From contig CAVPHZ010000001.1 in NCBI GenBank assembly GCA_963704905.1, positions 259,438-323,437 of the forward strand: 64,000 nucleotides of DNA. Reading direction: 5' to 3'. A model generated the notes under the pieces. The model did no database searches, had not been told where the DNA came from, and worked only from the letters and a program-made list of their open reading frames with translations. Both the position numbers and the translations under genes were made by a program. Below, piece by piece: positions 26,216-46,258 of this stretch. Each line of letters begins with the position of its first letter. Position 1 is the first letter of the stretch. The DNA comes from Candidatus Chisholmbacteria bacterium (lineage in GTDB: Bacteria > Patescibacteriota > Microgenomatia > UBA1400 > Chisholmbacteraceae).

Positions 26216-27151
26216 TTACTCTTCGCTGTCGAGAAGTTTTGTGATTGTTGGAAAGACACTTATATGGTCAAAGTTTAATGGCAATACTGATCCAATTTTT
26301 ACTGGTATGTCATCGAACGCGTATATTTCGTTTCGAAATACTTTTGTCTTCAATAGAATGGTATATGTTACATCCTTTAATACAGGATCTGTTACTTCCA
26401 GTGGTTGTCCCATGTCAGTAATTACAATTCTTCTAGCTGGCACTATCTCATTTGACTCTATTTTAACCAATACATTTTTATTTGAATCGAGAATCTTGTC
26501 ACCAACCTTCACTGCATCGGCTATTTCCGGTAACACTCCGTACACATCTGAGTACTCTCTTGAAGGGTAGAGAAGCTTTGCTTCAAGTTCTACAACTTCT
26601 GTTTCGTAAATATCCTGAATGTTGTTCACATCTGTTACAAGACCGTCAAATTGAATGGTGGAAAAATTAAACTGAAGAGGGGTTCCAAACGCCAGCTTTT
26701 GACCTTTAATTGAATATGCTTTGCTTCTGGAGTCGTATACTGCTCTTGTTTGAATCGTAAGATATACTACTTTTCTAGGAATGGTATTTGAATCTGAAAA
26801 GTAGTCTCCTCTTAATTCGCGTGGTTGACTAACATCAAATGATTCGACATCGACAATTTGAGAGTTTATTCTCCCTAAAGCATCTTTTTCCACATCACCT
26901 ATTTGAAATCTGTTCGCAAACCAACTCAAAGGTTGTGTTCTGGCATAAAGCAAGTCACGATCTGTTACTTTAACCCGTAGCTCAACAAATTCAGTCTTTC
27001 TAAATAAAAAAATAAAAACTCCTATTAGTACCGCTCCTAATACTACAAACAGTACGTAGTCTATAGTTCGTAGTGAGAGTTTTTTTAGCAAGTCTCCAGC
27101 TAATATGCTCTGCCATTTTTTCCTTAGTGTCATCATTATAGTCTCACTCAT
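26216..27151 (-). CDS. Hypothetical membrane-anchored extracytoplasmic protein
   Basis: 311 aa, a single N-terminal TM (IDYVLFVVLGAVLIGVFIFLF); no recognisable catalytic motifs; overlaps the Wzy-like gene by 4 nt. Confidence 0.3.
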   Translation of the reverse strand: MSETIMMTLRKKWQSILAGDLLKKLSLRTIDYVLFVVLGAVLIGVFIFLFRKTEFVELRVKVTDRDLLYARTQPLSWFANRFQIGDVEKDALGRINSQIVDVESFDVSQPRELRGDYFSDSNTIPRKVVYLTIQTRAVYDSRSKAYSIKGQKLAFGTPLQFNFSTIQFDGLVTDVNNIQDIYETEVVELEAKLLYPSREYSDVYGVLPEIADAVKVGDKILDSNKNVLVKIESNEIVPARRIVITDMGQPLEVTDPVLKDVTYTILLKTKVFRNEIYAFDDIPVKIGSVLPLNFDHISVFPTITKLLDSEE

Positions 27152-30685: not shown

Positions 30686-31135
30686 CTAACTATTCTTGAG
30701 TATCAAGCGATTAATATTAAGCACTCCTTTTCTTGTCAAAGACAAAATCTTTATCCTTGGGAAACGAACTGACAATCTAGTGAAAATTACTATTATGGGT
30801 GTGAGCGCTACTGTGGACAACTTTTTTTCGTAATGCTTCCACTTTCCGTCTATCTTGATGCTTGTCACTTTTCCCTCAATTATCTTTATTTTATTTCTCT
30901 GATCAAAGTGTCTATTCGCATCCGCTACTGTTTTGATACCACCATTAGTGGTCTTGATTACCCTATGAACTAGTGGGATTTCTGTTCCGTTACTTCTTAT
31001 ATAGGTAACTCCGATAATATCTCCAACTTTTATTTTCTCTTTTATAGCTCTATTTAATAACAACAGTTCGCCTTTGCGGATTGTTGGCTCCATACTTCTA
31101 CTGTTGATTCTTACTAGATTTATAAATTTTTCCAT
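30686..31135 (-). CDS. Signal peptidase I of the SipW/Sec11 (S26B, ER/archaeal) type
   Basis: 149 aa; box B NSRSMEPTIRKGELLLL, box D VGDIIGVTY...IPLVHRVIK, C-terminal TM. This is the SipW/Sec11 pattern (Ser-Met-Glu-Pro ... His-Arg-Val). Confidence 0.6.
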   Translation of the reverse strand: MEKFINLVRINSRSMEPTIRKGELLLLNRAIKEKIKVGDIIGVTYIRSNGTEIPLVHRVIKTTNGGIKTVADANRHFDQRNKIKIIEGKVTSIKIDGKWKHYEKKLSTVALTPIIVIFTRLSVRFPRIKILSLTRKGVLNINRLILKNS

Positions 31136-31272: not shown

Positions 31273-31899
31273 ATGAATTTTTCAAAAGGGTCAACTATTG
31301 TTGCTTTCGGAGCTCATCCAGATGATATCGAAGTTGGAATGGGTGGAACATTAGCCTATCTCTCAAGTTCATTTAAGGTTTTTCCGGTGATTGCCACTGT
31401 GCCAAATAATAAACGAACCAGAGTGAATGAAGCTAAAAACGCAGCAGCACTTCTAGGTATTCGGCAACCGATTTTTTTGAACATTTCAAAGAATGATTTC
31501 CTTTTTACACGTAAAGTAGTAACCCTTATAGACAAATTGGTTGATAAACTTGATCCAGATTATGTTTTCACTCACTGGATTGGTGATTCCCACCAAGACC
31601 ATCAAAACCTAACTAAGGTTGTAATTTCAGTTTGCAGGAAAAATCGATCTTCCCTTTTTATGTATGAAAGCATGATCCCTGGTGGGATAACGGATAAGGC
31701 TTTTCGAGCGCAGCTTTATGTTGATATTTCTGCTCATTTTAAAAAGAAAATATCCTCAATCAGAGCGAGTAAAACGCAACTCTCAAAACATGGTGCGTCT
31801 TGGCTAAAAGGAATAGAAGGAAGGTCGAGGTTGCGAGGATTTGAAATTGGAACTAAATACGCAGAAGCGTTTGAGGTGATAAAAATCGTACATAAATAG
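31273..31899 (+). CDS. PIG-L/LmbE-family deacetylase (second copy)
   Basis: TIVAFGAHPDDIEVGMGGT and HWIGDSHQDHQN motifs. Confidence 0.7.
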   Translation: MNFSKGSTIVAFGAHPDDIEVGMGGTLAYLSSSFKVFPVIATVPNNKRTRVNEAKNAAALLGIRQPIFLNISKNDFLFTRKVVTLIDKLVDKLDPDYVFTHWIGDSHQDHQNLTKVVISVCRKNRSSLFMYESMIPGGITDKAFRAQLYVDISAHFKKKISSIRASKTQLSKHGASWLKGIEGRSRLRGFEIGTKYAEAFEVIKIVHK

Positions 31900-32073
31900 T
31901 CATGAGATAACTTCTTTTTTTGACTTTTTATTTACTGAGCCGGTTTAACACCTCAAATACTAAATCAACACTATACATTTTTCTGCATTTCTTGCTAAGC
32001 TTTTGAGATTTCCTCCAAAGATAATTCCAATATTATTCCAGAAGTATATTCACTGCCATTAGTTATATTGCTC

Positions 32074-33324
32074 TTAATAAAATGTGGTAATTCCGTACTT
32101 CTTCAGTTCTTTTGAGGCGTTGTTTATTCTTCTTTTTACAACTTTCTTTGGGACTTTCGGTTCCAGTGTCGTTGATCTTGCTTCAGGTCTTTCACTATAC
32201 TCGAAGAGTGTCACCTGTTGAAATCCAATTTTTTTTATCGTATTTATCGTTTTTTGAAAATCTTTTTCAGTTTCTGTAGGAAAACCGACAATTACCTGCG
32301 TATCGATCCGTAATTCTGGATATTCCTTTTTTAATTCGAGCATTGCTATTTCTATTTCTTCAATTTTTCCCCTTCTTAGCATAAGTTTTAGTACTCTGTT
32401 GCTCCCAGATTGGATCGGACATAGAATCCTAGTAATTTTTTTTGTCTTTATAATTTTTTTCAGCTCTTCACGATAGTTGATCAACCATTCAGGATCTAGT
32501 TCTGAAATTGAAATGTTGTATTTTCCTTTATGTTTCACGATCTCTTCTAAGAGTCCTGGAAAGGTTTCTCCAATATCTAAACCATACAGTCCAACATTAT
32601 CAGATAATATATTGAATTCTTTATATCCTTCTGTGAGTCCTTCTTCGAATTCTCTTACACAGACATCTAAAGGTTTGCTTCTTAGTCTCCCGACGGCTTT
32701 CCATATGACACAATATGAACACCTTCTGCTGCATCCCCAACCAACTCTAATATGGTAAGTTCTTGCTGCAATAGAGTCAGGCCTGACATTATCAATACTC
32801 TCTAGTATTGATGGTGAAATATATGTAAGAAGGTGAACACTTTTATTTTTTAGACCATGAAAGGTGTATTTCATTGCTTTATAAAACACACTTCTGTTGT
32901 CACTATCGTTATTAACGTGAGGGAAATTGCTTTTGATATCACCTCGTTTTCTCTTGAATGTTTGATTAGCATCTCGCAGTGTAGAGAATTTAATCTTCAA
33001 GTGTGGATTTATGTTGTCAAATTTTTCAAGATTATCAGTTGCCAGCGCTTCTCCTTGGTGTATCTCTTTTAAACGCCTTGGGTTGATGTTAACAAGACAC
33101 CCAGTTACAATTAATTTTCCTTTATGTTTCTGGAGTGCACGGATTCTTTCTATCGACTTTTCTTCGTCTCTTCCTCTAAACGCACATGTATTTAAGATCA
33201 TTGTATTTGCTAAAGCAGGATGCCCGATCCAGTAATAGCCATTACTCGTAAAATAGCTTTTCATTTTTTGGGTGTCCAATAACCTTCTAGGACATCCTAA
33301 TGATTCGATATACACTGTCTTCAT
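32074..33324 (-). CDS. Radical SAM methylthiotransferase (MiaB/RimO/MtaB family), no TRAM domain
   Basis: N-terminal MTTase domain (VYIESLGCP...NTCAF...VTGCL) and radical SAM HIRVGWGCSRRCSYC; 416 aa. No C-terminal TRAM-like domain visible. Confidence 0.7.
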   Translation of the reverse strand: MKTVYIESLGCPRRLLDTQKMKSYFTSNGYYWIGHPALANTMILNTCAFRGRDEEKSIERIRALQKHKGKLIVTGCLVNINPRRLKEIHQGEALATDNLEKFDNINPHLKIKFSTLRDANQTFKRKRGDIKSNFPHVNNDSDNRSVFYKAMKYTFHGLKNKSVHLLTYISPSILESIDNVRPDSIAARTYHIRVGWGCSRRCSYCVIWKAVGRLRSKPLDVCVREFEEGLTEGYKEFNILSDNVGLYGLDIGETFPGLLEEIVKHKGKYNISISELDPEWLINYREELKKIIKTKKITRILCPIQSGSNRVLKLMLRRGKIEEIEIAMLELKKEYPELRIDTQVIVGFPTETEKDFQKTINTIKKIGFQQVTLFEYSERPEARSTTLEPKVPKKVVKRRINNASKELKKYGITTFY

Positions 33325-33531
33325 TTCACCTTACCTTTTTCAGAGTGCTTTTATATTATCTTCCCTTGATCATTCATTACCCATTGAGCTGGTGATTCCG
33401 ATCGAGAGAATCCCATTATACGCATGCATCGGTAACAGTTTTTTAAGATTTATTTTGATGCTTTGTGTCTTAACTATTTTCATTTCGATTGGTCTGTTTG
33501 AACTCTGGTAGTTACTATTCTAATCATTAAT

Positions 33532-34071
33532 TTACAATTTTAGCTCCTTTATTTCTAGGTTGTCCCATTTCTCTTTGCGTAACTGATTTTCAAAATGCGA
33601 GAATCTATAATTCTTACCATATCTTTTCACTCCTATTGTATGACGAAAGAATGTCATATGACCAACTACAGTGACTGAGTGGTATCTTTCACTTCTCATG
33701 TACGTGAGGAATCTGCACGCTCTCTCTTTTATCTCGTTGAAGCTCTCACTGCTGTCATACTTCCAATCTGGATTTTGTCTTATTTGCTGGATATGTTCTT
33801 TCCAAAAGTTACGAACAACGTCTAGTGGTTGAGCGTATAATACTTTTGGAGCAACGTATTCATAAATGAAATCAAGTATTTCGTATTCTTGAAAGAGCAT
33901 CTCAGCTGTTTGCCTTGCCCTTATTAGAGGTGATGTGTATACCTTCTCTGGTTTTAGACCTGATGCTGTGTTAAACAAATTTCCTGAAGTTACAATGGGG
34001 GTATCCTCTCTTGGGTATAATCCTTGTAAAGCATCAATAGTCTTTGCGTGCCTTAATAAGACTAGTTTCAT
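33532..34071 (-). CDS. Histidine phosphatase (phosphoglycerate-mutase-like) family protein
   Basis: MKLVLLRHAKT (RHG motif), ...SPLIRARQTAE..., VVGHMTFF. Confidence 0.65.
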   Translation of the reverse strand: MKLVLLRHAKTIDALQGLYPREDTPIVTSGNLFNTASGLKPEKVYTSPLIRARQTAEMLFQEYEILDFIYEYVAPKVLYAQPLDVVRNFWKEHIQQIRQNPDWKYDSSESFNEIKERACRFLTYMRSERYHSVTVVGHMTFFRHTIGVKRYGKNYRFSHFENQLRKEKWDNLEIKELKL

Positions 34072-34304
34072 TTATTCTGTGAATTAATAATGATTGGCGC
34101 GAGTATTTTAGCAATTCTCTTGAGTTAGTATTAGATAAACTACTTTATGAATATATTGTTAGGTTCTACAATTATTAGTATAGTTCATTTAGCACGTTTC
34201 GGGCGATAATATGATTTCTAACGTAACAGCGCAGGCTCATTGTCGAGAATACCAAGTTCGTTGCAACTTTATTCAATGTCTGGAGGTAGTACCTTAATTT
34301 TCTG

Positions 34305-35249
34305 ATGGTTGAAAAAGATGTTTCAATACTCATTTCCGGCGCAGGTGCGGCTGCTGGAATCGGTGCTATTAAGTCACTTCGTCTGGCAAATTTTAGTGGG
34401 AAAATTACGGCAATAGATAGTTCAGATTACTCTGCAGGTTTCTATCTTGCTGATAGGAACTATGTTGTTCCGCGAGCAAGAAATCCTAAGTATATTGGAA
34501 GACTGTTTGAGATTGTTGAAGAAGAGCGTATCAATCTCATTATCCCGACATCCGGTTTTGATATTTTTCCTATATCAAAACATGCGTCTGAGTTGAATAA
34601 AAAAGGCGTCGTTGTTTTTATGAGTGACTATTCAACCATGTTGTTGTGTTCTGATAAATATCAAGCGGCAATGAAGGTGTCCGCTTTTTCACCAATACCA
34701 AAGCACTACAAAACTATTCGACAAGTGAAGGAATATCCAGTTTTTATTAAACCACTTAAAGGTAAGGGTTCAATAAATTGCTATGTTTGCAAGAGTAGAA
34801 GAGAAGTTGAGGCTTATCAGCGTTTGGTTGGTGATAACTTCATTATTCAAGAGCATCTTCCTGGCAAGGAATACACTGTTGATCTATTGTCCGATTTCAA
34901 TAGAAAGGTTGTTGTGGCAGTTCCGAGACTAAGGATAAGAACTGAATCTGGGATATCTACAACAGGTAAAGTTCTATTGGATCCGAATTTGAGTAGCCTA
35001 GCGAAAAAAATATGTCATTTCATTGGCATCATTGGGCCTGCTTGCATCCAATTTAAAGAAGATCGACGTCGACAGGTGAAGTTTACTGAAATTAATCCAC
35101 GTTTGGGAGGGGGATCGATAATTTCCACTATCGCGGGGGTTAATATTCCTCGACTCCTCATAGATCTTTTCTTAAATAGATCGTTTCCAACTCCAAAGTT
35201 TCAAGAAGTACTCGTTACGAGGTATCTCGAGGAAAAATCACTCAACTAA
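34305..35249 (+). CDS. ATP-grasp domain ligase (CarB/PylC-like fold, 314 aa)
   Basis: ILISGAGAAAGIGAIKSL..., YPVFIKPLKGKGSINCYVCKS..., IIQEHLPGKEYTVD..., ACIQFKE...FTEINPRLGGG match ATP-grasp A/B/C subdomain motifs. Confidence 0.65.
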   Translation: MVEKDVSILISGAGAAAGIGAIKSLRLANFSGKITAIDSSDYSAGFYLADRNYVVPRARNPKYIGRLFEIVEEERINLIIPTSGFDIFPISKHASELNKKGVVVFMSDYSTMLLCSDKYQAAMKVSAFSPIPKHYKTIRQVKEYPVFIKPLKGKGSINCYVCKSRREVEAYQRLVGDNFIIQEHLPGKEYTVDLLSDFNRKVVVAVPRLRIRTESGISTTGKVLLDPNLSSLAKKICHFIGIIGPACIQFKEDRRRQVKFTEINPRLGGGSIISTIAGVNIPRLLIDLFLNRSFPTPKFQEVLVTRYLEEKSLN

Positions 35250-36279
35250 TGCTTTTATAATTCTTCCACAATTTTTTTAAGACGTTATCTGTGTATTTTT
35301 CTCGTATTGCTTTCCGTGAAGTATGAAATTGTAAGTTTTCCAATTCGTTTACTTCTTTCGTGCTTATTTCCAAATACCTACACGCTCGTCTTATTGCAGA
35401 GGAGACGATCGTCTTGTCTTCTATTTTTTTTCTAAAATATACTGCATCTAAGATAAACATTAATAGTCTACGCGAAAAGTACTCTTGACGAAGATTAATC
35501 AATCGATTCTGATCACTGCGAAGTTGTTTCATTAATTGAGCTTGAGATTTTTTTTCAAATATTTCATCTCGAATAGCTCTGTGCCTTTCTCCCGCAATGC
35601 TCCCAAGTGGGTCGATCCAAAATCGTCGATTCGATGATCTCATGTCTGGACTCGAGGTAGAGAATTTGTATCCTAAGTAGAAACAATGACGACTCCAGAA
35701 AATTGAAGATTCTTGTGGAAGAGGAATTTGCTCAGTAGAGAATGCGAGATTGTTGAACTTGGCGCTCACTACTCCAAAATACCCTCCAAAAAAGAATGGT
35801 CCAAATAGTTTGTTTTCGATGTTTTCTTGCCAACTAATTAATTTCATCAAGTCTGGTAAAAACACTTGTCTTTGCAACCTGACTAAGGGAAGGTATCTTA
35901 CCCTTCCTCTTAAAACGTCGGCGTTGGGGTTTTTGACAAAGTCTTTTCGTATGTTGATATAAAAATCTCTCAAGGGCCAATTGTCAGCGTCGGTACTTAA
36001 TAAATGAGTGGCTCGCTGTGAGGCGTGTTTTAATCCTTTATGTTTTGCGTACAGAGCGCCTTCTCTCTTCTCGTATATTACATCCAAGTTTATTTGTTTG
36101 TTCCATTTGTGCCAGGATTTTATCTTCCGCACCGTCGCATCCGTGCTATTGTTATCAACAATAACAAAGAGTATCTTCTGATCTTCTTGAGTGGTGAACT
36201 TCTCAAGTGCAGATACTATGTATCTTTCCTCATTATGTGTGGGGATTACCACCGCAATATCGAAATCCATGGCACTCAT
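35242..36279 (-). CDS. GT2-like glycosyltransferase with ~120-aa C-terminal extension (paralog 1 of 2)
   Basis: IAVVIPTHNEERYI...FVIVDNNSTD...LSTDADN; homologous along its length to 37374..38411 (shared GPFFFGGYF/GPYFFGSHF and ...RRL.../...RFLW... blocks). Confidence 0.65.
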   Translation of the reverse strand: MSAMDFDIAVVIPTHNEERYIVSALEKFTTQEDQKILFVIVDNNSTDATVRKIKSWHKWNKQINLDVIYEKREGALYAKHKGLKHASQRATHLLSTDADNWPLRDFYINIRKDFVKNPNADVLRGRVRYLPLVRLQRQVFLPDLMKLISWQENIENKLFGPFFFGGYFGVVSAKFNNLAFSTEQIPLPQESSIFWSRHCFYLGYKFSTSSPDMRSSNRRFWIDPLGSIAGERHRAIRDEIFEKKSQAQLMKQLRSDQNRLINLRQEYFSRRLLMFILDAVYFRKKIEDKTIVSSAIRRACRYLEISTKEVNELENLQFHTSRKAIREKYTDNVLKKLWKNYKSIS

Positions 36280-36291
36280 CCAGAATCTACT

Positions 36292-36555
36292 TTACTCAAT
36301 CAATAGTTTTTTTCTTCTTAGCTTGTTCAACAACTTCTCAACGTCAGCTTTTGCGGATAGATGGCTGACGTCATATTCTACTTTCAGTTTATTTATTATT
36401 TCGTCTTGAGATCTTGCCTTTGCTAAGAACTTCCAAATCAGAGTAGCAGATTCGTTAAGGCTGATAATTTCATCCTTTTCTTCGTCGAGGATGTGCATTT
36501 CTCCGTCCACTTCTTGGCAAATTATTTTCTTTTTTCTTTGATATTTTTTAGCCAT
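36292..36555 (-). CDS. PqqD-family protein (RiPP recognition element, RRE)
   Basis: 87 aa; ...QEVDGEMHILDEEKDEIISLNESATLIWKFLAKARSQDEIINKLKVEYDVSHLSAKADVEKLLNKLRRKKLLIE matches the PqqD consensus (vdGe..lld....i..LNeta..iW.l.....t.eeIv..L...Ydv......aDv..fl..L...gLI). Confidence 0.8.
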   Translation of the reverse strand: MAKKYQRKKKIICQEVDGEMHILDEEKDEIISLNESATLIWKFLAKARSQDEIINKLKVEYDVSHLSAKADVEKLLNKLRRKKLLIE

Positions 36556-37384
36556 CTTCGGTAATTTTCTTTATCAATATAGGAATAAAGTCTGAATCTG
36601 GGCGTAATTTTATTTGATATATGTCTACGTTGTCAATAAAACTGAAAATAAGCTTCCCGAACTCTTTGATTTCCTTTTGACTGAATAATGTATTTGGCAT
36701 AAACGGAATGTGAGAGTTCATTCTTATCAATGACAATTTATCTGAAAAACTCAGATTATTAATTTTATGCCTTTCTCCATGCGATGGAGAAAATACAGCT
36801 TTAACGATATACGGTGAATTATTATGAATATGTTGTTTAAAGATATCAAATCTGTTTGTTTCTAAAAAAGGAGAGGGATAGATAACAAATTCATTATTTT
36901 TTTTAAAAATAAACGCTGAGTTGTCCGAGAGTATCACTGATCCTGGTATTCGTTTCTTGATTAAATCTACTATTGTTGATTTTCCGCTTCCAGATTTTCC
37001 AGAAAAAATTATTGCTTTTTTTTCAATAAGAATCGATGATGCGTGAAGCACGAATCCGCCTGACTTGTGAAGAATGATATTAAAAATTCTTGCAATGAAT
37101 TGATGGACTGCGGGGTATAAAAAAATTGGTGCTTTTGAAGCGTGGATTGTGAATAAGTTGGATTTTGGATTTTGAAAAAAAGTGAGCGATATGTTTCTTT
37201 CACTGCTGTCTTTTATTTTTAATCTTGTGTGAATTAACCCTTTCTTGCTCTTGAGTTTGCACGAAATAAATTGACAGTTTTCATATAATTTTGTGAAATA
37301 TTTTATCCAATCAGACGCTGCTATAAGTTCGCACTCCATGTTTGCGTACTGTATGAATACTTGTTCATGCTTGCTACTTTTCAT
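36548..37384 (-). CDS. HPr kinase C-terminal-domain-like P-loop kinase (HprK_C, PF07475-like), as found in RRE-associated kinase pairs
   Basis: 278 aa; GGFVLHASSILIEKKAIIFSGKSGSGKSTIVDLI...VILSDNSAFIF = HprK_C-like P-loop; overlaps the PqqD gene by 8 nt. Confidence 0.7.
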   Translation of the reverse strand: MKSSKHEQVFIQYANMECELIAASDWIKYFTKLYENCQFISCKLKSKKGLIHTRLKIKDSSERNISLTFFQNPKSNLFTIHASKAPIFLYPAVHQFIARIFNIILHKSGGFVLHASSILIEKKAIIFSGKSGSGKSTIVDLIKKRIPGSVILSDNSAFIFKKNNEFVIYPSPFLETNRFDIFKQHIHNNSPYIVKAVFSPSHGERHKINNLSFSDKLSLIRMNSHIPFMPNTLFSQKEIKEFGKLIFSFIDNVDIYQIKLRPDSDFIPILIKKITEDG

Positions 37385-38411
37385 CTAGATACCTGTTCAT
37401 TTTCACATTAATTTGTTTTAATACATCAGCTTCTAAGCGGTTGAATATTTTAGCTTGATTAACTATTCCATTTTCTTTCGTCAAGAGTTCCTCCGTATGG
37501 TTAATAAATCCCAGTGCCTTCTGCATTGCCCTTCTGGCGTTATGGTGGATTTGATTAGTTTGAACCCAGAAAACATAAGCATCGATCATTGACCAGAGAA
37601 ATCTCTTTGAAAATTTAGCCACTAGTTTTCCTTTCAACTTACTCGCTTCATTATCTGACATTCTTTTAAATTGTATTCCTTGATCGCTTACATCTTTGTC
37701 ATATGGTGAGCTCACATTTCCTATATATTCCGCAATTGTTCTCTCTTGGTAGAGTAGTATTCTTCTGTCGTGTGGCTTAACAGCGAGTTTTGAACGCAAA
37801 AATTTTCCGCCAAGATAATGGCATCTTCTGGAAAGTAAGATGTCTTCGCCCATATACTTTTCATGATTCTCGGGATTAAATAAAAGAATATTTCTATAGA
37901 ACTTGGTTCGGATTGCAAAGTGTGATCCAAAGAAATATGGTCCAAATATTGAGTATTCAAGATTCCATATTTTTCTTTGCATGTTTACAATCTCTGGAGC
38001 TGTAATTTTTTTCCACAACCTAATTCTTGGATTGATTGCTTTTCTGCCAGACAGAATATCTATACGCTCCTCCGCAAAAGAGTCGACAGTAGATTGGATT
38101 AGGTTTGATGGAAACGTTGTGTCGGCATCGGTGCTAATTAAAATGTCTGATGATGTTTTTGAAGCCTTATCTAAACCTGTCCTTCTGGAGTATACCGTCC
38201 CTTGTCGTCTTTCTTGAATGATGCTGTAGGTGATGCCAGATTTTCTGCAGAACTCTTCTATGATTTCTGGAGTCTTGTCTATGCAATTGTTATTTACAAA
38301 AATTACCTCCCACTTAATATTGGATGCTGTTTGTTGATTAGCGAGGCATATTAAGGTATTCGTTATGTAGTATTCTTCGTTGAAAAATGGAATAACTACT
38401 GCACAGTTCAT
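37374..38411 (-). CDS. GT2-like glycosyltransferase with C-terminal extension (paralog 2 of 2)
   Basis: CAVVIPFFNEEYYI...VIFVNNNCID...ISTDADT; same architecture as 35242..36279. Confidence 0.65.
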   Translation of the reverse strand: MNCAVVIPFFNEEYYITNTLICLANQQTASNIKWEVIFVNNNCIDKTPEIIEEFCRKSGITYSIIQERRQGTVYSRRTGLDKASKTSSDILISTDADTTFPSNLIQSTVDSFAEERIDILSGRKAINPRIRLWKKITAPEIVNMQRKIWNLEYSIFGPYFFGSHFAIRTKFYRNILLFNPENHEKYMGEDILLSRRCHYLGGKFLRSKLAVKPHDRRILLYQERTIAEYIGNVSSPYDKDVSDQGIQFKRMSDNEASKLKGKLVAKFSKRFLWSMIDAYVFWVQTNQIHHNARRAMQKALGFINHTEELLTKENGIVNQAKIFNRLEADVLKQINVKMNRYLDEK

Positions 38412-39076
38412 CTCTTGTTTTGCTTTGCGTACTGTCTGAAATCGATTAAGTCGATCCTTTTCCTCTTAATAGCATTTTTGACTTTATCACTGGTTAACAC
38501 CTCTACCTCTCTGTTTCTTTGCATGCGGTAGGGATCCTTCAATCGGTTACTTGTCCACCCGGGATGACAGATCAGCTCTGTACTACCTGGTTCTAATGAA
38601 TCCAAACAACTGATCAAGTGACTCGTGCTGATGTTCTCCGGTGTAGGTCTTCCGGAGATTAAACCATAGAACCTCGTCTCTATGTAATGATTGTTGTCAT
38701 AACGAAATTCAAGCTGTTGTTTCTTGACCAGCATACGTATTTTAAAATACATTTTTTTGGAAAATTTAAACCCTTTATGATAATCTAGATGCGTTGGTTT
38801 GAACTTAAAATACCTTTGAAAAACCCCTAGTTGTTCATTTGTCTTTGCTACGATACTTTCTGCTGTGATATTTTTATCTTCGACCTGTATGTGAATGCCC
38901 CAATTGATATCACTGTTTTGTTGAACTAACTTCTGAGTGTGTGAAAGATGGTTTCTATTTAAAAGAATGCTTGTTGAAGTAACAATTCCTTTTCTAATTG
39001 CATACAGTATTCCATGACTAATACCTGGACTAATGCCGAAGTCGTCGGCATTCACAATTAACTTTCTAGATTGCAT
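38408..39076 (-). CDS. YdjC/ChbG-family carbohydrate deacetylase
   Basis: LIVNADDFGISPGISHGIL... plus THLDYHKG and CHPG motifs of the YdjC family. Confidence 0.7.
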   Translation of the reverse strand: MQSRKLIVNADDFGISPGISHGILYAIRKGIVTSTSILLNRNHLSHTQKLVQQNSDINWGIHIQVEDKNITAESIVAKTNEQLGVFQRYFKFKPTHLDYHKGFKFSKKMYFKIRMLVKKQQLEFRYDNNHYIETRFYGLISGRPTPENISTSHLISCLDSLEPGSTELICHPGWTSNRLKDPYRMQRNREVEVLTSDKVKNAIKRKRIDLIDFRQYAKQNKR

Positions 39077-39115: not shown

Positions 39116-39226
39116 TTAGTGCTCTGCGTAGAAGCTTGAAATAAATTTCTCTGTTTTGAGCTCTGGTTTAACGTATTTTTTTCGGTTTGTCTTCTTCTCT
39201 TCTTGCTTGTTGATCTTTCTCATCAT
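39116..39226 (-). CDS. Candidate small ORF (36 aa, Lys-rich): MMRKINKQEEKKTNRKKYVKPELKTEKFISSFYAEH; possible precursor/substrate peptide of the downstream RRE-kinase-GT operon
   Basis: Hand-translated on the minus strand. Strong SD AAAGGGGGTG 5 nt upstream of ATG (39224-39226), TAA stop at 39116-39118. Lies 39 nt upstream of the YdjC gene on the same strand and below the ORF-track size cutoff. Confidence 0.4.
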   Translation of the reverse strand: MMRKINKQEEKKTNRKKYVKPELKTEKFISSFYAEH

Positions 39227-39263
39227 TCACACCCCCTTTACCTCCATACTTTGGTATATCTCA

Positions 39264-39293
39264 AGGTTAGCATGCTTCTTGAGTAGTTGTCAA
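39264..39293 (-). promoter_or_regulatory. Sigma70-like promoter for the small-ORF/YdjC/GT2/kinase/PqqD/GT2 operon
   Basis: Minus strand: consensus -35 TTGACA (39288-39293), 18-nt spacer, -10 TAACCT (39264-39269), ~35 nt upstream of the small-ORF ATG. Confidence 0.4.
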
Positions 39294-39405: not shown

Positions 39406-40044
39406 ATGAGATCGGAAAATCCTTATAAAACTCTTGAAAAAATTGAATCTGTTTGCAAAAAATGCAACATTCCAACAATTGGAGTAAATACTGGTGAGGT
39501 TTTGTCGTTGCTTGCAGCTTTACATAAACCTCGAAAGATACTGGAAATCGGAACAGGAGGTGGATACTCGACAATTTGGATTGCAAGTAAGTTAACGCAT
39601 AACTATTTCATTGATACAATTGAAAAAGACAAAAGCGTGTATTCCATAGCCATGAAAAATATTACAAGCACTCGATTTTCAAATAATATTCATCTCATCC
39701 ACTCTGATGCTCTCACTTGGATAAACAGAAAAACGAATGAAGAGTACGATTACATCTTTGTTGATGGAAAGAAAAGTGAATACCATCGATATTTAGAGTC
39801 ATGTAGACCTCTTCTTAGAAAAAAAGGGCTGATTATATTTGATGACACTTTGTTCTGGCTGAAAAAAAATACAGATACTGCTCGGGCCTTTAAGACAAGA
39901 AAAGAGAAGATTTTCCATATCCTGAAGATGAAAAGGCTTGAGGTATATTTTAGAGATTTTAATAGGAAATTCCAGAAGAATTCTCAATACAATGCGGTAT
40001 TCATTCCCATAGAGAATGGTTTAACCATCGGTCAGAAGTTATAA
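39406..40044 (+). CDS. Class I SAM-dependent O-methyltransferase (family 3, caffeoyl-CoA-OMT-like)
   Basis: KILEIGTGGGYSTIWIA..., YDYIFVDGKKSEY..., GLIIFDDTLFW. Confidence 0.65.
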   Translation: MRSENPYKTLEKIESVCKKCNIPTIGVNTGEVLSLLAALHKPRKILEIGTGGGYSTIWIASKLTHNYFIDTIEKDKSVYSIAMKNITSTRFSNNIHLIHSDALTWINRKTNEEYDYIFVDGKKSEYHRYLESCRPLLRKKGLIIFDDTLFWLKKNTDTARAFKTRKEKIFHILKMKRLEVYFRDFNRKFQKNSQYNAVFIPIENGLTIGQKL

Positions 40045-40082: not shown

Positions 40083-41111
40083 ATGATTATTCTCAAACAG
40101 ATTGTTTTTGCTTTTTCTTCGATGCTGTTCTTCTTTTCGCTTGGAAGGTGGCCATTTTTTAATTGGCGTTATCGATACGTTTTACCTCTATCAGCTGTTT
40201 TTTCTTTTACATCTCTGGTTTATACACTCTCTCAGTACAGATTTTCGTACTATGAGTTGTTCCTGCTTTTATTACTCTTGCTGTTTAGCTTAATCTATGG
40301 AAAGAGAAGAAAGTATTATGGTGGTTCAACGCTTTTTCAACAAATGTCACATGGCTTGATTACTGTCGAAGAAAATAAATCAAAAAATATTCGAGTACTA
40401 AAGCGAGATGGAAAAACTACCTCAGGTATCGAGCTAACAACCCAGCAGCCGACTTCAAAATTGCTCTGGTTTCCTCATCTTTCAGAGCTTTTCCCTTTTA
40501 AGATAACGCGTGTTCTTTGTATTGGAGGTGGAGCTTGTGCTTATCCAATTTATGCTTTGAAAATGAATCCAGAAATGTATATGGATGTCGTTGAAATCGA
40601 TCCGGTAGTTGTTGAGGTAGCTAAGAAGTACTTTCCTCTTCCAATAGCTAGTGGCTTTAAACTTATTCAAGATAATGCTTTACGATGGCTTAAGAAAAAT
40701 CACAAAAAGAAATATGACCTCATTTTTGTTGATGTAGGAATTATCTCGTCGGTTTCACAAGTTTCATACAACACTCAATTCCTGAATGAAAACGCTTTAA
40801 AAGATTATATAAGATGTCTATCTAAGAATGGCACAGTAATGATAAATATTATGATGACCTTACTTTCTGGAGATATTAAACTAAATTATGAGTTGCTTTC
40901 TGCCTTTAATAAATCTTTTCGATCCTATCTCGCGTTTGTTACTAATCCGATAATCGACAAGGCTCAATTGAATGACGTCCTGCACATCTTCAGTAGACAG
41001 AAAGTTATTCAAGGTCTACTTAGAAAGAAACTATCCTTAACACCCGAAGACCAGTTGTCATTTAATAAGAACGATTATCTACAGATGCTTGACTCTCGTC
41101 AGGTTGGTTAG
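40083..41111 (+). CDS. Membrane-anchored spermidine-synthase-fold (aminopropyl/methyl-transferase-like) protein
   Basis: 2-3 N-terminal TMs then RVLCIGGGACAYPIYALKMNPEMYMDVVEIDPVVVEVAKKYF and YDLIFVDV, matching the spermidine/spermine synthase Rossmann motifs. Confidence 0.5.
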   Translation: MIILKQIVFAFSSMLFFFSLGRWPFFNWRYRYVLPLSAVFSFTSLVYTLSQYRFSYYELFLLLLLLLFSLIYGKRRKYYGGSTLFQQMSHGLITVEENKSKNIRVLKRDGKTTSGIELTTQQPTSKLLWFPHLSELFPFKITRVLCIGGGACAYPIYALKMNPEMYMDVVEIDPVVVEVAKKYFPLPIASGFKLIQDNALRWLKKNHKKKYDLIFVDVGIISSVSQVSYNTQFLNENALKDYIRCLSKNGTVMINIMMTLLSGDIKLNYELLSAFNKSFRSYLAFVTNPIIDKAQLNDVLHIFSRQKVIQGLLRKKLSLTPEDQLSFNKNDYLQMLDSRQVG

Positions 41112-41127
41112 TTTAATACGTTAACAT

Positions 41128-41889
41128 TTACTTTTTTTTGGGGGGGGTGTATTTGAAGTTGTATTCTTTTTCATAAAGGCGAATAATTCCTTTTGGGGTG
41201 CTTTTTGCTCGAATCTCGCCATTGAATAACCAAATAGCTCGATTGCAGATTTTTTTCAGTAACTCAAAAGAGTGTGTAGCAATAATTATTGTTTTTCGTT
41301 TTTTCCTAAACTCGTTAATTTTATCTAGTGATTTTTGTTTGAAATTATTATCCCCAACAGAAATATTTTCATCTAGAATAAGAACTTCTGGTGAGGCATG
41401 AATAGCAATGGCAAAACTTATTCGTAGCTTCATTCCGTCTGAGTATGTATATAATGGCGCATCGATAAACCCACCGATGTCCGCAAAGGTTGTAATGCTT
41501 TTTAGTTTTTTTACGATTTCATTTTTATCCATTCCAAGCAATAAACCATTCAAGAAAATGTTTTCTTCCCCGGTTAAATCTGGGTGAAACCCAGCTCCAA
41601 GTTCAATGAGGGATATAATTTTATGCTCACAGAGAATGCTACCGTACGTAGGGGTTGTTATCCCTGCCATAATCTTAAGAAGGGTTGTTTTTCCTGATCC
41701 ATTTGCCCCGAAGATACCAACTGAGTCTCCTTTAAATACTGTTAAGTTTATGTCCCTTAGGGCGTAGAATTCTTCAGTTTTTTTTCTTTTGAAAATATTT
41801 TCTACTAGCGTAGGTTTCTCGTGATGAACGACATACTTCTTTCCAATGTGCTTAAGCTTAATGATAGTTTCTCTCATTTTTACAACCAA
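41128..41889 (-). CDS. ABC transporter ATP-binding protein, Wzt/TagH/KpsT type (glycan export)
   Basis: Walker A GANGSGKTTLLKIMAGI, signature YSDGMKLRISFA, Walker B LILDE. Confidence 0.8.
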   Translation of the reverse strand: MVVKMRETIIKLKHIGKKYVVHHEKPTLVENIFKRKKTEEFYALRDINLTVFKGDSVGIFGANGSGKTTLLKIMAGITTPTYGSILCEHKIISLIELGAGFHPDLTGEENIFLNGLLLGMDKNEIVKKLKSITTFADIGGFIDAPLYTYSDGMKLRISFAIAIHASPEVLILDENISVGDNNFKQKSLDKINEFRKKRKTIIIATHSFELLKKICNRAIWLFNGEIRAKSTPKGIIRLYEKEYNFKYTPPKKK

Positions 41890-42662
41890 TCAACGAAGTA
41901 TGGACTTTCCCTTATGAATATGTAGATCCCAACACATATAACAACCATGCTTATCACTAAATTGGTCATCATCAGTTGAACATTTATTAATCCTTGATTC
42001 AAAATTGCCATATGAAATAACTCAAAAATACTTGTAAGAGGGTTAATTAAAAATAGCTTATGTAAAGAATCTGGGATGATACTTAAGTTATAAATAATTG
42101 GTGTTATATAGAACCACAAGATTAGCGCTGATTGAATAAAAAAGTTTATGTCTCTAAAGCGCACCTGGAGGCTTGATGTGATTAGAGACAAACCAATCGT
42201 AAACATTAGCAGCCATACAAGAGCTGGTAACATTATAAGTATCTCGGGAAATAGGAGTTTGTTGGTTAATAATAAAAATATTCCTAGCAAAAATAGTGAA
42301 ATTAAAAGGTGGATAAAGTTAGAGAATATCATTGAAATCGGTATTACTTCCTTTGAAAATTTCGTTTTTTGCAGTAATGATCGCTCATTAACGAAACTTG
42401 GGGTAGTCTTAGTTACTGAGAGTAGAAAAAATTGCCATGGTAATAATCCTGTAAATAAAAATAGGAAATAGTCAGGTATTCTAATATACAAAGAAAAAAT
42501 TAGACCGATGATTGTCATTTGAAGCAAGGGGTTAAGTAAAACCCATAAAAAACCAAATATTGCCCTTTTATATCGAGCTTTTATCTCTCTTTCGGTCATC
42601 ACCCAAAGAAAGTCTAGATATTTATTCATATTTTCTCTAGTTTTTTTTCTACGAATGAGCAT
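41880..42662 (-). CDS. ABC-2 type permease (Wzm/TagG/KpsM-like)
   Basis: 260 aa, 6 TMs, ABC-2 family pattern; overlaps the ATPase gene by 10 nt. Confidence 0.75.
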   Translation of the reverse strand: MLIRRKKTRENMNKYLDFLWVMTEREIKARYKRAIFGFLWVLLNPLLQMTIIGLIFSLYIRIPDYFLFLFTGLLPWQFFLLSVTKTTPSFVNERSLLQKTKFSKEVIPISMIFSNFIHLLISLFLLGIFLLLTNKLLFPEILIMLPALVWLLMFTIGLSLITSSLQVRFRDINFFIQSALILWFYITPIIYNLSIIPDSLHKLFLINPLTSIFELFHMAILNQGLINVQLMMTNLVISMVVICVGIYIFIRESPYFVDWL

Positions 42663-43526: not shown

Positions 43527-44279
43527 TTGTATATCAAAGTAATTTTGCTACAATTTTTTCCTATGAACATCTTTGTTCGTCGTATTCGGTATCTGCCCGT
43601 CCTGAGCATGATAAGTTTATTTCTTTTTGCACTGCTTTTTTCTCCATCATCGACATCGGGAACTATTGACCAAGTTTCGCTTTCATTTCTTCGCCAACCG
43701 ACACCAATTCTGGCAACAGAGTCGAAATTTACTGAGCAGGTAGAAAGTTGGGAAGAATCGATTGATTTTTCAACCGTTTACGTTAAAGATGACTCGTATG
43801 AGCTTGGTACTGAAGTCATCACTCGGGAAGGGTCGCCGGGAAAAAAGCGAGTAATTCAAACTACCGTAACCTACGATGGAGAAGATTACTCGACTTCAAT
43901 TGAGGAAGATATTCTGATAGAGGCTGAGAATCAGGTGATTGTACAAGGAACAAAAATCGTATTGAGAACAATAGAGAGTGAGTACGGAAATCTCACGTAT
44001 TCACAGACCTTTTCAAATATGTGGGCGACGAGTTATGACTCGACTTGCTCTGGGTGTAGTACTACAACAGCGACGGGAATGAAGCAGGGTTATGGAGTGG
44101 TTGCGGTTGATCCAACTGTAATCCCACTTTATAGCAAAGTCTTCGTCCCAGGCTATGGCATTGCTCTTGTGGGTGATGTTGGTGGATCGATTAAGGGAAA
44201 TAGAATCGATCTTGGGTATGACTCTCTTGGCGGACAGTGGAAAGCACATTCTGTAGATGTGTATCTGCTTGTCGATTAA
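43527..44279 (+). CDS. G5 + 3D domain cell-wall protein (YabE/RpfB-like)
   Basis: G5-like block YELGTEVITREGSPGKKRVIQTTVTYDGEDY...; C-terminal 3D domain (ATSYDSTCSGCSTTTATGMKQGYGVVAVDPTVIPLYSKVFVPGYGIALVGDVGGSIKGNRIDL). Confidence 0.6.
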   Translation: MYIKVILLQFFPMNIFVRRIRYLPVLSMISLFLFALLFSPSSTSGTIDQVSLSFLRQPTPILATESKFTEQVESWEESIDFSTVYVKDDSYELGTEVITREGSPGKKRVIQTTVTYDGEDYSTSIEEDILIEAENQVIVQGTKIVLRTIESEYGNLTYSQTFSNMWATSYDSTCSGCSTTTATGMKQGYGVVAVDPTVIPLYSKVFVPGYGIALVGDVGGSIKGNRIDLGYDSLGGQWKAHSVDVYLLVD

Positions 44280-44323
44280 TTTTTTTAGCTCTCAGAATCC
44301 CCTGTATAATAAAGCTTATCACT

Positions 44324-45361
44324 ATGGTCATTCGTGAAGTTCGCATTGACGAAAAATCCCCTTTTAATTTACTTGCTCAGCATCCGGTTCAAAGTTGGGA
44401 ATGGGGGGAGTTTAAGAAAAAAACTGGAGTTGAAGTTGTCCGTTTAGCTTCTTTTCATAAAGAAACTATGCAGGCTGGGTATCAGATTAGTTTTCACCCA
44501 GTTCCGAAGACGTCATACAGTGTTGGCTACTTTCCTAAAGGCCCCCTTCCAGATGATGATCTCCTTGAAGCACTTATCGATGTTGGACGTAGGCGAAATG
44601 CGCTTTATATAAAACTCGATCCAAATGTCCAAACAAAAGATGGTCAGGAAGTTTTTCAAGAACTTTCGAAGAAATTTGATCTTCGATTAGGGCGTACGGT
44701 ATTTACACCTAATACTTTTTTTATTGATCTCACAAAATCTGAGGACGAGTTGCTAGCGTCCATGAAATCAAAGTCTCGTTACAATATACGTTTGGCAAAG
44801 CGACATGGAGTTACCGTCCATGAAGATAACAGCACGAAAGCTATTGAAACCTATCTTCGATTAACTCGAGAAACTGCTACACGGCAAGGATTCTATGCCC
44901 ATGATGAAGAGTATCATCGACTTCTGTGGGAAATTCTTCACACTTCAATGGAACGTGCTGGTCAAGATCCAATCGCCCGCCTTCTGGTTGCGAAGTATAC
45001 AAAGGAAATTCTTGTCACTTGGATGGTCTTTGTCTTTCATAAAACCCTCTATTATCCTTATGGTGCTTCGTCGAGCAAACATCAGAATCTCATGGCAAGT
45101 AATCTTATGATGTGGGAGGCTATGCGTTTTGGAAAGACGCTTGGCTGTCAGTTGTTTGACCTTTGGGGTTCGCTTGGATCGAATCCAGATCCAAAGAACC
45201 CATGGTATGGATTTCATCGATTTAAAGAGGGGTTTGGCGGGGAGCTCATTCATTTTGTAGGAACCTACGATTTGGTCATTCAACCACAGCTCTATCCTCT
45301 GTTTCGGTTTGCTGAAGATGCCCGGTGGAAGGTGTTGCGCATCCTTTCAAAATTCCGATGA
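44324..45361 (+). CDS. FemAB-family peptidoglycan interpeptide-bridge aminoacyltransferase (FemX/MurM-like), copy 1
   Basis: ...HPVQSWEWGEFKKKTG...FYAHDEEYHRLLWEI...LYYPYGASSSKHQNLMASNLMMWEAMRFGKTLGCQLFDLWG... = FemAB family. The track's 44237 start overlaps the upstream gene; ATG at 44324. Confidence 0.65.
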   Translation: MVIREVRIDEKSPFNLLAQHPVQSWEWGEFKKKTGVEVVRLASFHKETMQAGYQISFHPVPKTSYSVGYFPKGPLPDDDLLEALIDVGRRRNALYIKLDPNVQTKDGQEVFQELSKKFDLRLGRTVFTPNTFFIDLTKSEDELLASMKSKSRYNIRLAKRHGVTVHEDNSTKAIETYLRLTRETATRQGFYAHDEEYHRLLWEILHTSMERAGQDPIARLLVAKYTKEILVTWMVFVFHKTLYYPYGASSSKHQNLMASNLMMWEAMRFGKTLGCQLFDLWGSLGSNPDPKNPWYGFHRFKEGFGGELIHFVGTYDLVIQPQLYPLFRFAEDARWKVLRILSKFR

Positions 45362-46258
45362 TTGACTTACGACAATCTCCTTTCTACGCAGAGCATATGA
45401 AGAAACTTGGGTGGATTGTTGAGACTCTTCCTAGTCTCTCTCGGTCTTCTTCTCGTAACTCTTCTCCTCGAATATTTGCTTACATTCGCAGATTACCTTT
45501 TCTACCTATCTCTATTATGAAAATTCAACGCTTTACCCCTATTCCAGATTTCGGTAAGATCGTCGCATTAAACCGAAAACATCGAGTGTTCTCGATCACG
45601 CTTGAGCCTGGACTACTCAATAAAATAGACAAAGTTCATTTTACCAAAGCAATAACAAGGTTTAAATATCGATCATTGAATTGGCCGTTACAGCCAACTT
45701 CAACTGTCCGCGTAAATTTGAAACAATCTCTGCAAGTACTTCTAAAGGGATTGGGTTCTGATGCGAGAGCGAGTGTTCGTAAAGCTAAGCAGACTTGCAA
45801 GGTAAAGTTCATTTCTACTGATGACCGTTTAGAAATTGAGCAGTTTTATGAGTTTTGGAAACAAAATGGAAAAGGGTATGTGCCATCACAGAAAGAGTTT
45901 GATAGTTTACTTCAGGCTTTTGAAAACAATGCGACTCTTGTCTTAGTTTTTAAAGATCGTGAACTTCTTTCTGGTGTTGTCATTCTTTTTCATGATCGGC
46001 AGGCATATTATTACTATGCAGCAACTTCGTCAAAAGGCAGGAGAGAGTTTGCAGGTTACTACTCAACTTGGAGAGCAATTCTTGAAGCTAAGCGACGAGG
46101 ATGTTTGTGTTTGATTTTGAAGGTATCTATGATGAGCGGTTTCCAAAACTTAAGCGGTGGAAAGGATTTTCTCGGTTTAAGAAGAAGTTTGGCGGAGAGA
46201 TCATTCGTTATCCTTTACCTGTAGGTCGGTTTCGTTTACCAATTTCTTTTTCTTTATA
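45358..46258 (+). CDS. FemAB-family aminoacyltransferase, copy 2, carrying an apparent -1 frameshift near 46100 (pseudogene or sequencing error)
   Basis: ATGA-coupled to copy 1. The track ORF ends ...KRRGCLCLILKVSMMSG...; a different frame from ~46100 gives MFVFDFEGIYDERFPKLKRWKGFSRFKKKFGGEIIRYPLPV..*, the canonical FemAB C-terminus (DFEGI ... FK..FGG), ending at 46258. Confidence 0.5.

Follow-up and report, generated by a model that had tools for sequence, protein, structure and literature searches.

A small uncalled gene heading a YdjC/glycosyltransferase/kinase/PqqD operon of Candidatus Chisholmbacteria probably encodes a precursor or substrate peptide

Linear polyphosphorylated peptides (LPPs) and the phosphorylated lasso peptides of the paeninodin type are the closest described systems to the subject of this report, a 36-codon open reading frame (ORF) at positions 39116-39226 on the minus strand of a 64,000-nucleotide stretch of a Candidatus Chisholmbacteria genome (contig CAVPHZ010000001.1; the whole stretch is called the window below). 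The LPPs, exemplified by LppA/K/B/S/N/D of Paenibacillus alginolyticus, were described from Bacillota by Popov et al. (Nat Commun 2026) under a five-gene definition (PMC13381572). Their precursors of 35-200 aa carry a leader of the form Y(-16)xxP(-13)xVLxHQxIxFET(-1), Ser3 of the variable core is polyphosphorylated, and the clusters lie within capsule loci; the biological role of both LPPs and paeninodins is still unknown (PMC13381572). The motif [Y/W]xxPx[L/V/I/F/A] has been mapped experimentally as the segment of lasso and LPP leaders that binds the recognition element (RRE) of such RiPPs (peptides synthesized by the ribosome and modified after translation), and in the RRE protein LppB, N33 fixes the kink at leader Pro-13 and D70 hydrogen-bonds leader Tyr-16 (PMC13381572). 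Supplementary Data 2 of the same work identifies the nucleoside triphosphate (NTP) transferase of the clusters as NTP_transf_5, the signal peptidase I-like (SpI) protein by TIGR02228, and the "HprK kinase" by TIGR04249, TIGR04352 and TIGR04355 (PMC13381572). Pseudomycoidin receives a phosphate on its C-terminal Ser from the HprK-like PsmK, and the nucleotidyltransferase-like PsmN is needed for hexoses to be placed on that phosphate, so that phosphate-linked sugar decoration of a peptide has precedent (PMC6993621).

The ORF of the window heads an operon encoding a YdjC-family protein, two GT2 glycosyltransferases, an HprK-like kinase and a discrete PqqD-type RRE. An earlier, sequence-only reading of the window had proposed it as the precursor or substrate peptide of that operon. 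The analysis reported here supports the proposal through conservation of the ORF, its coding signature, its synteny, its RRE-binding motif and the matching residues of the RRE. In our view the ORF is likely to be the gene for a ribosomal peptide that serves as precursor or substrate in an RRE-dependent modification pathway, itself a distant relative of the LPP and paeninodin-type systems.

The peptide gene and its conservation

Read on the minus strand, the ORF runs ATG ATG AGA ... GAG CAC TAA, with its start codon at 39224-39226 and its stop codon at 39116-39118, and its product is MMRKINKQEEKKTNRKKYVKPELKTEKFISSFYAEH, as the sequence-only reading had it in both sequence and coordinates. A second ATG directly follows the first, from which a 35-codon product is possible, and an in-frame TGA at 39227-39229, immediately 5' of the first ATG, means that the ORF cannot extend further upstream. 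The strong Shine-Dalgarno region claimed earlier is present on the same strand at 39230-39245; it consists of GGAGG at 39241-39245 followed by AAAGGGGGTG at 39230-39239, and 5 nt separate the G-run from the ATG. The gap of 39 nt to the start of the co-directional YdjC gene was likewise confirmed. The hexamers of the promoter proposed at 39264-39293 on the minus strand (TTGACA at 39288-39293, then 18 nt, then TAACCT at 39264-39269) are where they had been placed, but the -10 hexamer agrees with the consensus at only 3/6 positions, although a preceding TGc makes it extended -10-like. The pair was not among the sites listed by a promoter scan of the region, and promoter-like sites in the region were not enriched (21 found versus 25.3 expected from shuffles); for these reasons TTGACA-18-TAACCT is kept as a possible, candidate promoter. 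Between the peptide gene and YdjC we found no terminator, attenuator, riboswitch or structured RNA (fold z-score -0.10), and the only Rfam family in the window was one tRNA, with none in this interval.

A collection of about 15 billion predicted proteins did not contain the exact peptide MMRKINKQEEKKTNRKKYVKPELKTEKFISSFYAEH, and in an independent assembly of the same locus the ORF had been skipped by the gene caller. The gene is therefore truly unannotated, in keeping with the expectation that standard callers would miss it.

Related loci were reached via homologs of the kinase, and DNA was fetched around twelve kinases. An ORF of 23-38 aa with the same motif was found in every fetched locus with enough flanking sequence, and in 11/11 distinct locus types, which are the window and those that we label L009, L004, L005/22, L001, L008, L021, L018-20, L028/29, L030/31 and L032. 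These loci span 28-52% GC, and their kinases are 31-47% identical. The peptide of the window aligns as KKYVKPELKTEKFISSFYAEH; its counterparts are KRYVKPSLKVEKFVASFYAEW in L009, KSYRKPAVQIEKFVASFYAEWL in L004, KAYIKPEAKVEKFVASFYAEY in L005/L022, KAYKGLKVKVDKFVASFYAEWY in L001, KAYRGLKVKVDKFIASFYAEW in L008, GKYIKPKVKVEKFIADLYLEW in L021, MKKDYSKPMVKIERFVADIFAEW in L018-20, KLYKKPTVKIQRFVADIFAEW in L028/29 and KAYKKMGSRREKFASAFFAEPT in L032. The locus type L030/31 has two tandem peptide genes, MKKEKYEKPTVKVSKFTPNLFLEH and a copy of the same sequence ending in EHF, which in L030 lie 5' of PqqD at 8180-8408 on the minus strand, each with its own Shine-Dalgarno site. Their tail is the most diverged of the family, V-A-S being replaced by T-P-N. 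It is typical of RiPP clusters to have more than one precursor gene. The consensus of the family is Y-x-K-P-x-V-K-V-E-K-F-V-A-S-F-Y-A-E-W, and the invariant positions, numbered from the Tyr, are Y1, [KR]10, F11, [FLI]15, [YF]16 and E18.

Several features of the alignment point to selection on the encoded peptide. Among the orthologs, differences at third codon positions were 2-4 times those at positions 1 and 2, and the segment E-K-F-V-A-S-F-Y-A-E is written with differing synonymous codons across loci of such different base composition. A Shine-Dalgarno site stands at the right distance in 7/9 of the orthologs examined, in addition to those before both L030 copies. Each family locus yielded one occurrence of the pattern Y-x8-[KR]F-x3-[FLI][YF]-x-E, except L030 with two, and the rest of the 638,288 six-frame residues of all fetched DNA yielded none, against an expectation of 0.15; this count is partly circular, the motif having been derived from the same sequences.

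The position of the ORF is conserved as well. In all 11 locus types it heads an operon, that of YdjC in most and that of PqqD in L018-20, L021, L028/29 and L030/31, with spacing to the next gene that ranges from an overlap up to about 80 nt; the ORF thus tracks the system, not one downstream gene. What is kept among the syntenic loci is not only a nucleotide region, which the sequence-only reading had named as the outcome that would speak against a peptide; the ORF itself is kept in every locus recovered. At the level of comparative sequence analysis, these results confirm that the ORF is a real, conserved, uncalled small gene under coding constraint.

The peptide was also sought beyond these loci. 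A degenerate DNA pattern for [ED]KF[VI][AS]SFYAE gave seven matches in 185,579 species genomes, a set evidently lacking the window's own genome, and one of the seven, on the L001 contig, was real. The six others (L011-L015 and L017, from Prevotella/Bacteroides) were rejected as peptide genes; they are SusC-like TonB-dependent receptors of about 1000 aa that hold DKFVASFYAEL or DKFVSTFYAEL internally. The near-identical 10-mer in these receptors is probably a coincidental strand motif, and such proteins will contaminate pattern searches for the peptide tail. A metagenome scan with the kinase alignment gave, among the matches listed, five distant kinase loci (L023-L027), and the peptide motif was present in none of them. 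The L001/L016 contig, CAYSMC010000015.1, has about 30% GC, and its neighbouring genes encode an AA_kinase, a zf-ChsH2-like protein and a polyprenyl synthase; the record's label, "uncultured Pseudomonadales bacterium", looks doubtful given that GC content.

Leader motif, recognition protein and cluster enzymes

The peptide of the window contains YVKPEL (Y18-V-K-P21-E-L23), which fits the YxxPx[LV] form of the RRE-binding motif, followed by the tail E26-K-F28-I-S-S-F-Y-A-E35-H. The discrete PqqD-type RRE is encoded at 36292-36555 on the minus strand (Pfam PF05402, E 1.7e-16). Its best NCBIfam match is the lasso-peptide PqqD chaperone, and its best matches by sequence in the PDB are the lasso B1 proteins TfuB1 (6jx3) and TbiB1 (5v1u), followed by 9x8z_B. 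The last of these is LppB, as established from the residue numbers in PMC13381572 with a tag offset of 18. An ungapped alignment sets N34 and D71 of the window protein on N33 and D70 of LppB, and the equivalents of both residues are invariant in 11/11 of the family RREs.

The sequence-only reading had seen a leader in the highly basic N-terminus of the peptide. This part of the claim did not survive the comparison, as the Lys-rich segment is variable and dispensable, and the 23-24 aa versions in L019 and L030 do without it. In the alignment, the predicted leader-like element is instead the central YxKP segment. The RRE residue two positions after the conserved Asn, equivalent to V35 of LppB, which packs on the leader Pro, is Pro or Ala in L001 and L008, whose peptides have Y-x-G-L, and Thr or Ser in all others. 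This may be co-variation of RRE and peptide. It counts as one event and is a hint only, because L001 and L008 are sister lineages and L032, with Y-K-K-M, keeps Thr.

The enzymes of the operon had been read as YdjC-GT2-HprK-PqqD-GT2. Pfam confirms four of these assignments, and the kinase is weakly recognised by sequence. The first enzyme gene, at 38408-39076 on the minus strand, encodes a YdjC-family carbohydrate deacetylase-like protein (PF04794, E 1.4e-30), which is present in every family locus with enough sequence. The two GT2 glycosyltransferases are encoded on the same strand at 37374-38411 (PF00535, E 2.7e-19) and 35242-36279 (PF00535, E 1.7e-16), the latter gene coming after PqqD in nearly all loci. 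A PDB search with both GT2s gave generic GT-A similarity only (TarS, GtrB) and linked neither to a known peptide glycosyltransferase; both match mycofactocin glycosyltransferase models weakly. Overlaps of 4, 11 and 8 nt join YdjC, GT2, kinase and PqqD. The 4-11 nt overlaps described earlier hold for these junctions but not for the last GT2 gene, which follows PqqD after a 12-nt gap.

The HprK-like P-loop kinase, encoded at 36548-37384 on the minus strand, falls into Pfam ScmC (PF27840) and has the conserved motifs GFVLHAS and G-x-SG-x-GKST. TIGR04352, TIGR04249 and TIGR04355 recognise it only weakly, at E 1e-4 to 4e-3 and with scores well short of the cut-offs. A PDB sequence search with the kinase profile gave generic P-loop matches only and no related solved structure. 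An AlphaFold2 model (pLDDT 88) has the phosphoenolpyruvate carboxykinases as its closest folds (E 2e-9, TM about 0.55), the fold class that also holds the catalytic domain of HprK/P, and the protein is predicted to be a kinase of phosphoenolpyruvate carboxykinase/HprK-type fold. Homologs of the kinase are rare. A word-indexed search found 11, and 28 clusters were found at E<=1e-30 among 1.84 billion representatives; at E<=1e-10 the PF27840 kinases comprise 923 clusters.

The operon described earlier does not make up the whole system; a signal peptidase-like protease, an NTP_transf_5 protein and an ABC-2 exporter are to be counted with it. The protease, of 149 aa and encoded at 30686-31135 on the minus strand, resembles signal peptidase I of the archaeal/endoplasmic reticulum type and is a candidate leader peptidase. 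It has no Pfam match at E<=1e-5, and its TIGR02228 score is marginal (51.5 bits versus a cut-off of 51.85), while 5/5 of the aligned family members match the model. It has the boxes S-x-S-M-x-P-T, H-R and A-D-A-N, the catalytic Ser and His boxes being conserved, and its best PDB matches are SEC11A/C. Its homologs are encoded by the gene after PqqD-GT2 in L004, L005 and L001, by a divergently oriented neighbour of the peptide-PqqD operon in L018, and beside YdjC in L030. The "uncharacterised nucleotidyltransferase" of the NTP_transf_5 (LppN) family is encoded at 29435-30574 on the minus strand (PF14907, E 2.8e-25) and recurs in L004, L005, L018, L021, L028 and L030. The exporter pair, at 41128-42662 on the minus strand, consists of an ATPase (41128-41889) and a permease (41880-42662) of the TagH/Wzt plus Wzm type, and is found in all the longer family loci. 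Exporters of the TagGH/Wzm-Wzt type normally serve lipid-linked glycopolymers.

Two divergently transcribed genes on the plus strand, for a Methyltransf_3 O-methyltransferase (39406-40044) and a spermidine synthase-like (aminopropyltransferase-like) protein (40083-41111), are recurrent accessories, found again in L001, L004, L005, L028 and L030. Between the protease gene and the operon lies a variable accessory block comprising a PIG-L/BshB-like deacetylase (31273-31899, plus), a MiaB/RimO-like radical S-adenosylmethionine (SAM) methylthiotransferase homolog (32074-33324, minus), a histidine phosphatase (33532-34071, minus) and a PylC-like ATP-grasp ligase (34305-35249, plus). From this block (31273-35249) only the ATP-grasp and PIG-L genes recur, and in L009 alone, where they adjoin a GT2 gene. 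The ATP-grasp/PIG-L pair may be an optional tailoring module, and the MiaB-like and histidine phosphatase genes may be unrelated to the cluster. In L028, a GSDH-family protein (PF07995, glucose/sorbosone dehydrogenase) is encoded at 5346-6743 between the kinase and NTP_transf_5; it occurs in this locus type only.

The gene content of the window is bacterial. The region 5441-28614 is unusually glycan-oriented, with PMT_2 (5441-7162), DUF2298 (10381-12693) and Wzy_C/O-antigen ligase-like genes (17020-19152 and 27148-28614). A G5/3D-domain protein is encoded at 43527-44279 and two FemAB-like proteins at 44237-46224, and RmuC and AddA-like genes are also present. For two adjacent ORFs of about 500 aa (53837-55324 and 55384-56901), Pfam gave nothing at E<=1e-5. 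The peptide cluster is embedded among cell-envelope genes, like the LPP clusters in capsule loci.

Relation to described systems

Judged by predicted gene content, the window encodes four of the LPPs' five core components, the kinase as a candidate, and in addition a precursor of YxxP type. In both systems the RRE is a discrete protein of PqqD type in which the Asn/Asp pair for the leader Pro kink and Tyr is retained, and both precursors have the YxxPx[VL] leader motif. The kinase of the window matches the three models that the LPP authors pooled (TIGR04249, TIGR04352 and TIGR04355), weakly in this case, at E 1e-4 to 4e-3 and well under the cut-offs. Both systems include an archaeal-type SpI-like peptidase, for which the window's TIGR02228 score of 51.5 against 51.85 bits is marginal, and both have an NTP_transf_5 protein, in the window that at 29435-30574. 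Neither has a lasso cyclase, and both lie among polysaccharide genes.

There are differences as well. The exporter here is a TagGH/Wzm-Wzt-like ABC-2 pair, whereas that of the LPPs is MsbA-like. Of the LPP leader, only YxxPx[VL] is shared; the present peptides continue with K-V-E-K-F-V-A-S-F-Y-A-E-W and then end, 19-20 residues past the Tyr. The position equivalent to Ser3 of the LPPs is W, H, Y or P in this family, in which none of the Ser residues is invariant. YdjC, two operonic GT2s and the spermidine synthase-like protein are core here, whereas the 126 LPP clusters contain YdjC in 0, Spermine_synth in 0, ABC2_membrane in 2 and GT2 in 19 cases. The LPPs have been reported only from Bacillota, and the present loci come from uncultured organisms of 28-52% GC. 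The system lies outside the LPP family as defined; the most apt description is that of a variant within the broader LPP and phospho-lasso kind.

Paeninodin and pseudomycoidin share with the window a B1-type RRE, a Y/WxxP leader motif (YVKP in the window peptide) and an HprK-like kinase (in the window a predicted one), and a nucleotidyltransferase-like protein (PsmN there, NTP_transf_5 here) is common to the lasso systems with PsmN and the present one. The window peptide differs in having no C-terminal Ser. Neither a macrolactam synthetase (Asn-synthase-like C protein) nor a B2 transglutaminase-like protease was found among the genes of the window cluster or the called genes of the related loci. 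A lasso peptide system is therefore ruled out, and the peptide cannot form a lasso because the cyclase is absent.

Other peptide systems are more remote. SynChlorMet (ScmC P-loop and ScmD PqqD-like proteins; TIGR04249/TIGR04248) resembles the present system in that the kinase belongs to Pfam ScmC PF27840 and the RRE weakly matches ScmD, but the scores are 18 bits against equivalog cut-offs of 125 and 100. Radical SAM/SPASM enzymes are part of the SynChlorMet cassette and are not conserved in the present loci. Among the loci, a radical SAM (SPASM) partner was limited to L004 and L008, and the MiaB-like homolog is all that the window has of this kind. Mycofactocin and pyrroloquinoline quinone (PQQ) likewise derive from a small peptide with a conserved C-terminus and involve a PqqD-family chaperone, with a GT2 (MftF) in the case of mycofactocin; in contrast, the RRE here is nearer to the lasso and LPP RREs, and a kinase, an SpI-like peptidase and NTP_transf_5 stand in place of the radical SAM partner. 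Glycocins of the SunA/SunS type are helical bacteriocins glycosylated on Cys or Ser that have disulfides and a double-glycine leader and come with a SunS-like GT2. A glycocin was rejected here, the window peptide having neither Cys nor a double-glycine leader and the GT2s having only generic GT-A similarity (TarS, GtrB). In the literature searched, no paper links YdjC with PqqD, and the term "SynChlorMet" was also without matches.

Proposed function and alternatives

The pathway that we consider likely would run as follows. Translation of the peptide would start at the operon's head, from a strong Shine-Dalgarno site of its own, and the peptide's central Y18-x-x-P21-x-L23 segment would dock as a strand on the RRE, where D71 would hold the Tyr hydroxyl and N34 the Pro kink. 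The RRE would then present the tail E-K-F-I-S-S-F-Y-A-E-H to the HprK-like kinase, the two GT2s and NTP_transf_5, by which phosphate and sugar would be added. YdjC, and PIG-L where present, would de-N-acetylate an added N-acetylhexosamine, and the methyltransferase and aminopropyltransferase-like protein could tailor the product further. The SipW/Sec11-like peptidase would take off the leader part, and the TagGH/Wzm-Wzt-like ABC-2 transporter would export the product. Of these elements, the RRE binding, the order of the steps and the cleavage site are inferred.

The site of modification is less clear than the sequence-only reading had supposed. It had named Ser, Tyr and His residues of FISSFYAEH as acceptors, and these are unconserved: the Ser position is S, D, N or A, the Tyr is Tyr or Phe, and the His is W, H, Y or P. 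The only tail residues of the window peptide that are invariant across the family are Phe28 and Glu35. Because the Ser position varies and one peptide has no hydroxyl residue in its tail, phosphorylation of Ser is not the universal chemistry of the family. As for cleavage, the LPP spacing of 16 residues from Tyr to the cleavage site, if it applies, would release only A-E-aromatic; by a signal peptidase-like -3/-1 rule, on the other hand, a cut after F-[VI]-[AS] would be compatible.

Several observations weigh against the pathway as drawn. For the Ser that undergoes modification in LPP and paeninodin, the family offers no invariant equivalent (S, D, N or A at position 14 from the Tyr), and in the L019 peptide MKKDYSKPMVKIERFVADIFAEW hydroxyl residues are lacking altogether past the RRE motif. 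LPP cores are long and variable, whereas the tail here is short and conserved. The Pro of YxxP is absent in three peptide types (Y-x-G-L in L001 and L008, Y-K-K-M in L032). The identity of the kinase rests on its fold and on weak, below-cut-off hidden Markov model matches. The SpI-like gene lies 4.1 kb past the last operon gene, and it and NTP_transf_5 are 4-5 kb from the operon's end with unrelated-looking genes between. Some cluster genes may serve a glycan pathway and not the peptide, because the exporter is of the type used for lipid-linked glycopolymers.

A further form of the proposal is a mini-core or leader-only RiPP, with the tail modified on a carboxylate instead of Ser, plausibly that of the invariant Glu, or serving as primer for a phospho-amino-sugar chain that the teichoic acid/O-antigen-type ABC-2 transporter exports. 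In the primer variant, the kinase, NTP_transf_5, the two GT2s and YdjC would together build such a chain on the tail. We regard this form as possible but doubtful.

Whether the peptide is modified at all was weighed against a role as leader-only adaptor or activator, which would bind the RRE and turn on or assemble the kinase and GT2s, these then acting on another molecule, such as a lipid-linked glycopolymer exported by the TagGH/Wzm-Wzt-like transporter. The whole peptide is indeed leader-like, with nothing variable past the conserved motif and no conserved acceptor Ser, Thr or Tyr, the exporter is of glycopolymer type, and genes of the Bac_transf, Wzy_C, PMT_2 and UDP-sugar dehydrogenase families abound in the surroundings. 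We nonetheless judge an adaptor unlikely. The conserved SpI-like peptidase implies that the peptide is cleaved, the strongest conservation, including the invariant Glu, lies in the tail beyond the RRE motif, and tandem gene copies as in L030 suit a consumed substrate better than a regulator; moreover, the characterised homologous systems modify the peptide itself (PMC13381572, PMC6993621). A conserved rather than variable C-terminus, as in PqqA and MftA, could also mean that a small molecule is made from the last few residues, for example A-E-aromatic, in the manner of PQQ or mycofactocin. The Glu beside the aromatic residue is invariant, the LPP spacing of 16 residues would free just A-E-H or A-E-W(x), and the GT2s have their weak matches to mycofactocin glycosyltransferase models; but no radical SAM/SPASM partner is conserved (L004 and L008 only, with the MiaB-like homolog in the window), the RRE is nearest to lasso and LPP RREs and not to PqqD or MftB, and the terminal aromatic residue itself varies (W/H/Y/P). 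We find a product of this kind quite improbable.

The remaining explanations would deprive the peptide of any role as substrate. That the ORF is a cis-acting regulatory leader peptide, whose translation or stalling at ...FYAE-aromatic-stop controls the downstream genes, is suggested by its shortness, its place at the 5' end of the operon 39 nt from the next gene, and the fact that its best-conserved part is the C-terminus adjoining the stop codon. It is a very improbable account, since no terminator or alternative hairpin lies downstream (fold z-score -0.10), the downstream gene is either YdjC or PqqD at spacings between an overlap and about 80 nt, the ORF is present twice in tandem in L030, and the Y-x-K-P motif and the conserved RRE residues that bind it would be left without a role. 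Finally, ORFs of this length are common, with about 150 of at least 25 aa in 15 kb, and this one was passed over by gene callers; the idea of a random ORF within a 5' untranslated region is nevertheless scarcely credible, given a motif kept in 11 locus types of 28-52% GC with synonymous codon turnover, and Shine-Dalgarno sites in most loci.

On the likely reading, that of a precursor or substrate peptide, the central gene of a conserved biosynthetic system goes unseen by standard gene calling. The logic of this system, which has published precedent in the LPPs, would extend the combination of RRE, HprK-like kinase, SipW-like peptidase and NTP_transf_5 to a separate, rare lineage with dedicated sugar-handling enzymes. 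It also poses a puzzle: in a RiPP-like system that includes a kinase, the peptide conserves no hydroxyl acceptor, and the exporter is of glycopolymer type. The cluster offers a compact, testable case for what such kinases and the enigmatic NTP_transf_5 proteins do, and for whether peptides of this sort are coupled to the export of cell-surface glycans. If the doubtful primer or carboxylate form were true, the product would be a glycoconjugate primed by a ribosomal peptide, an undescribed link between RiPPs and cell-surface glycopolymers.

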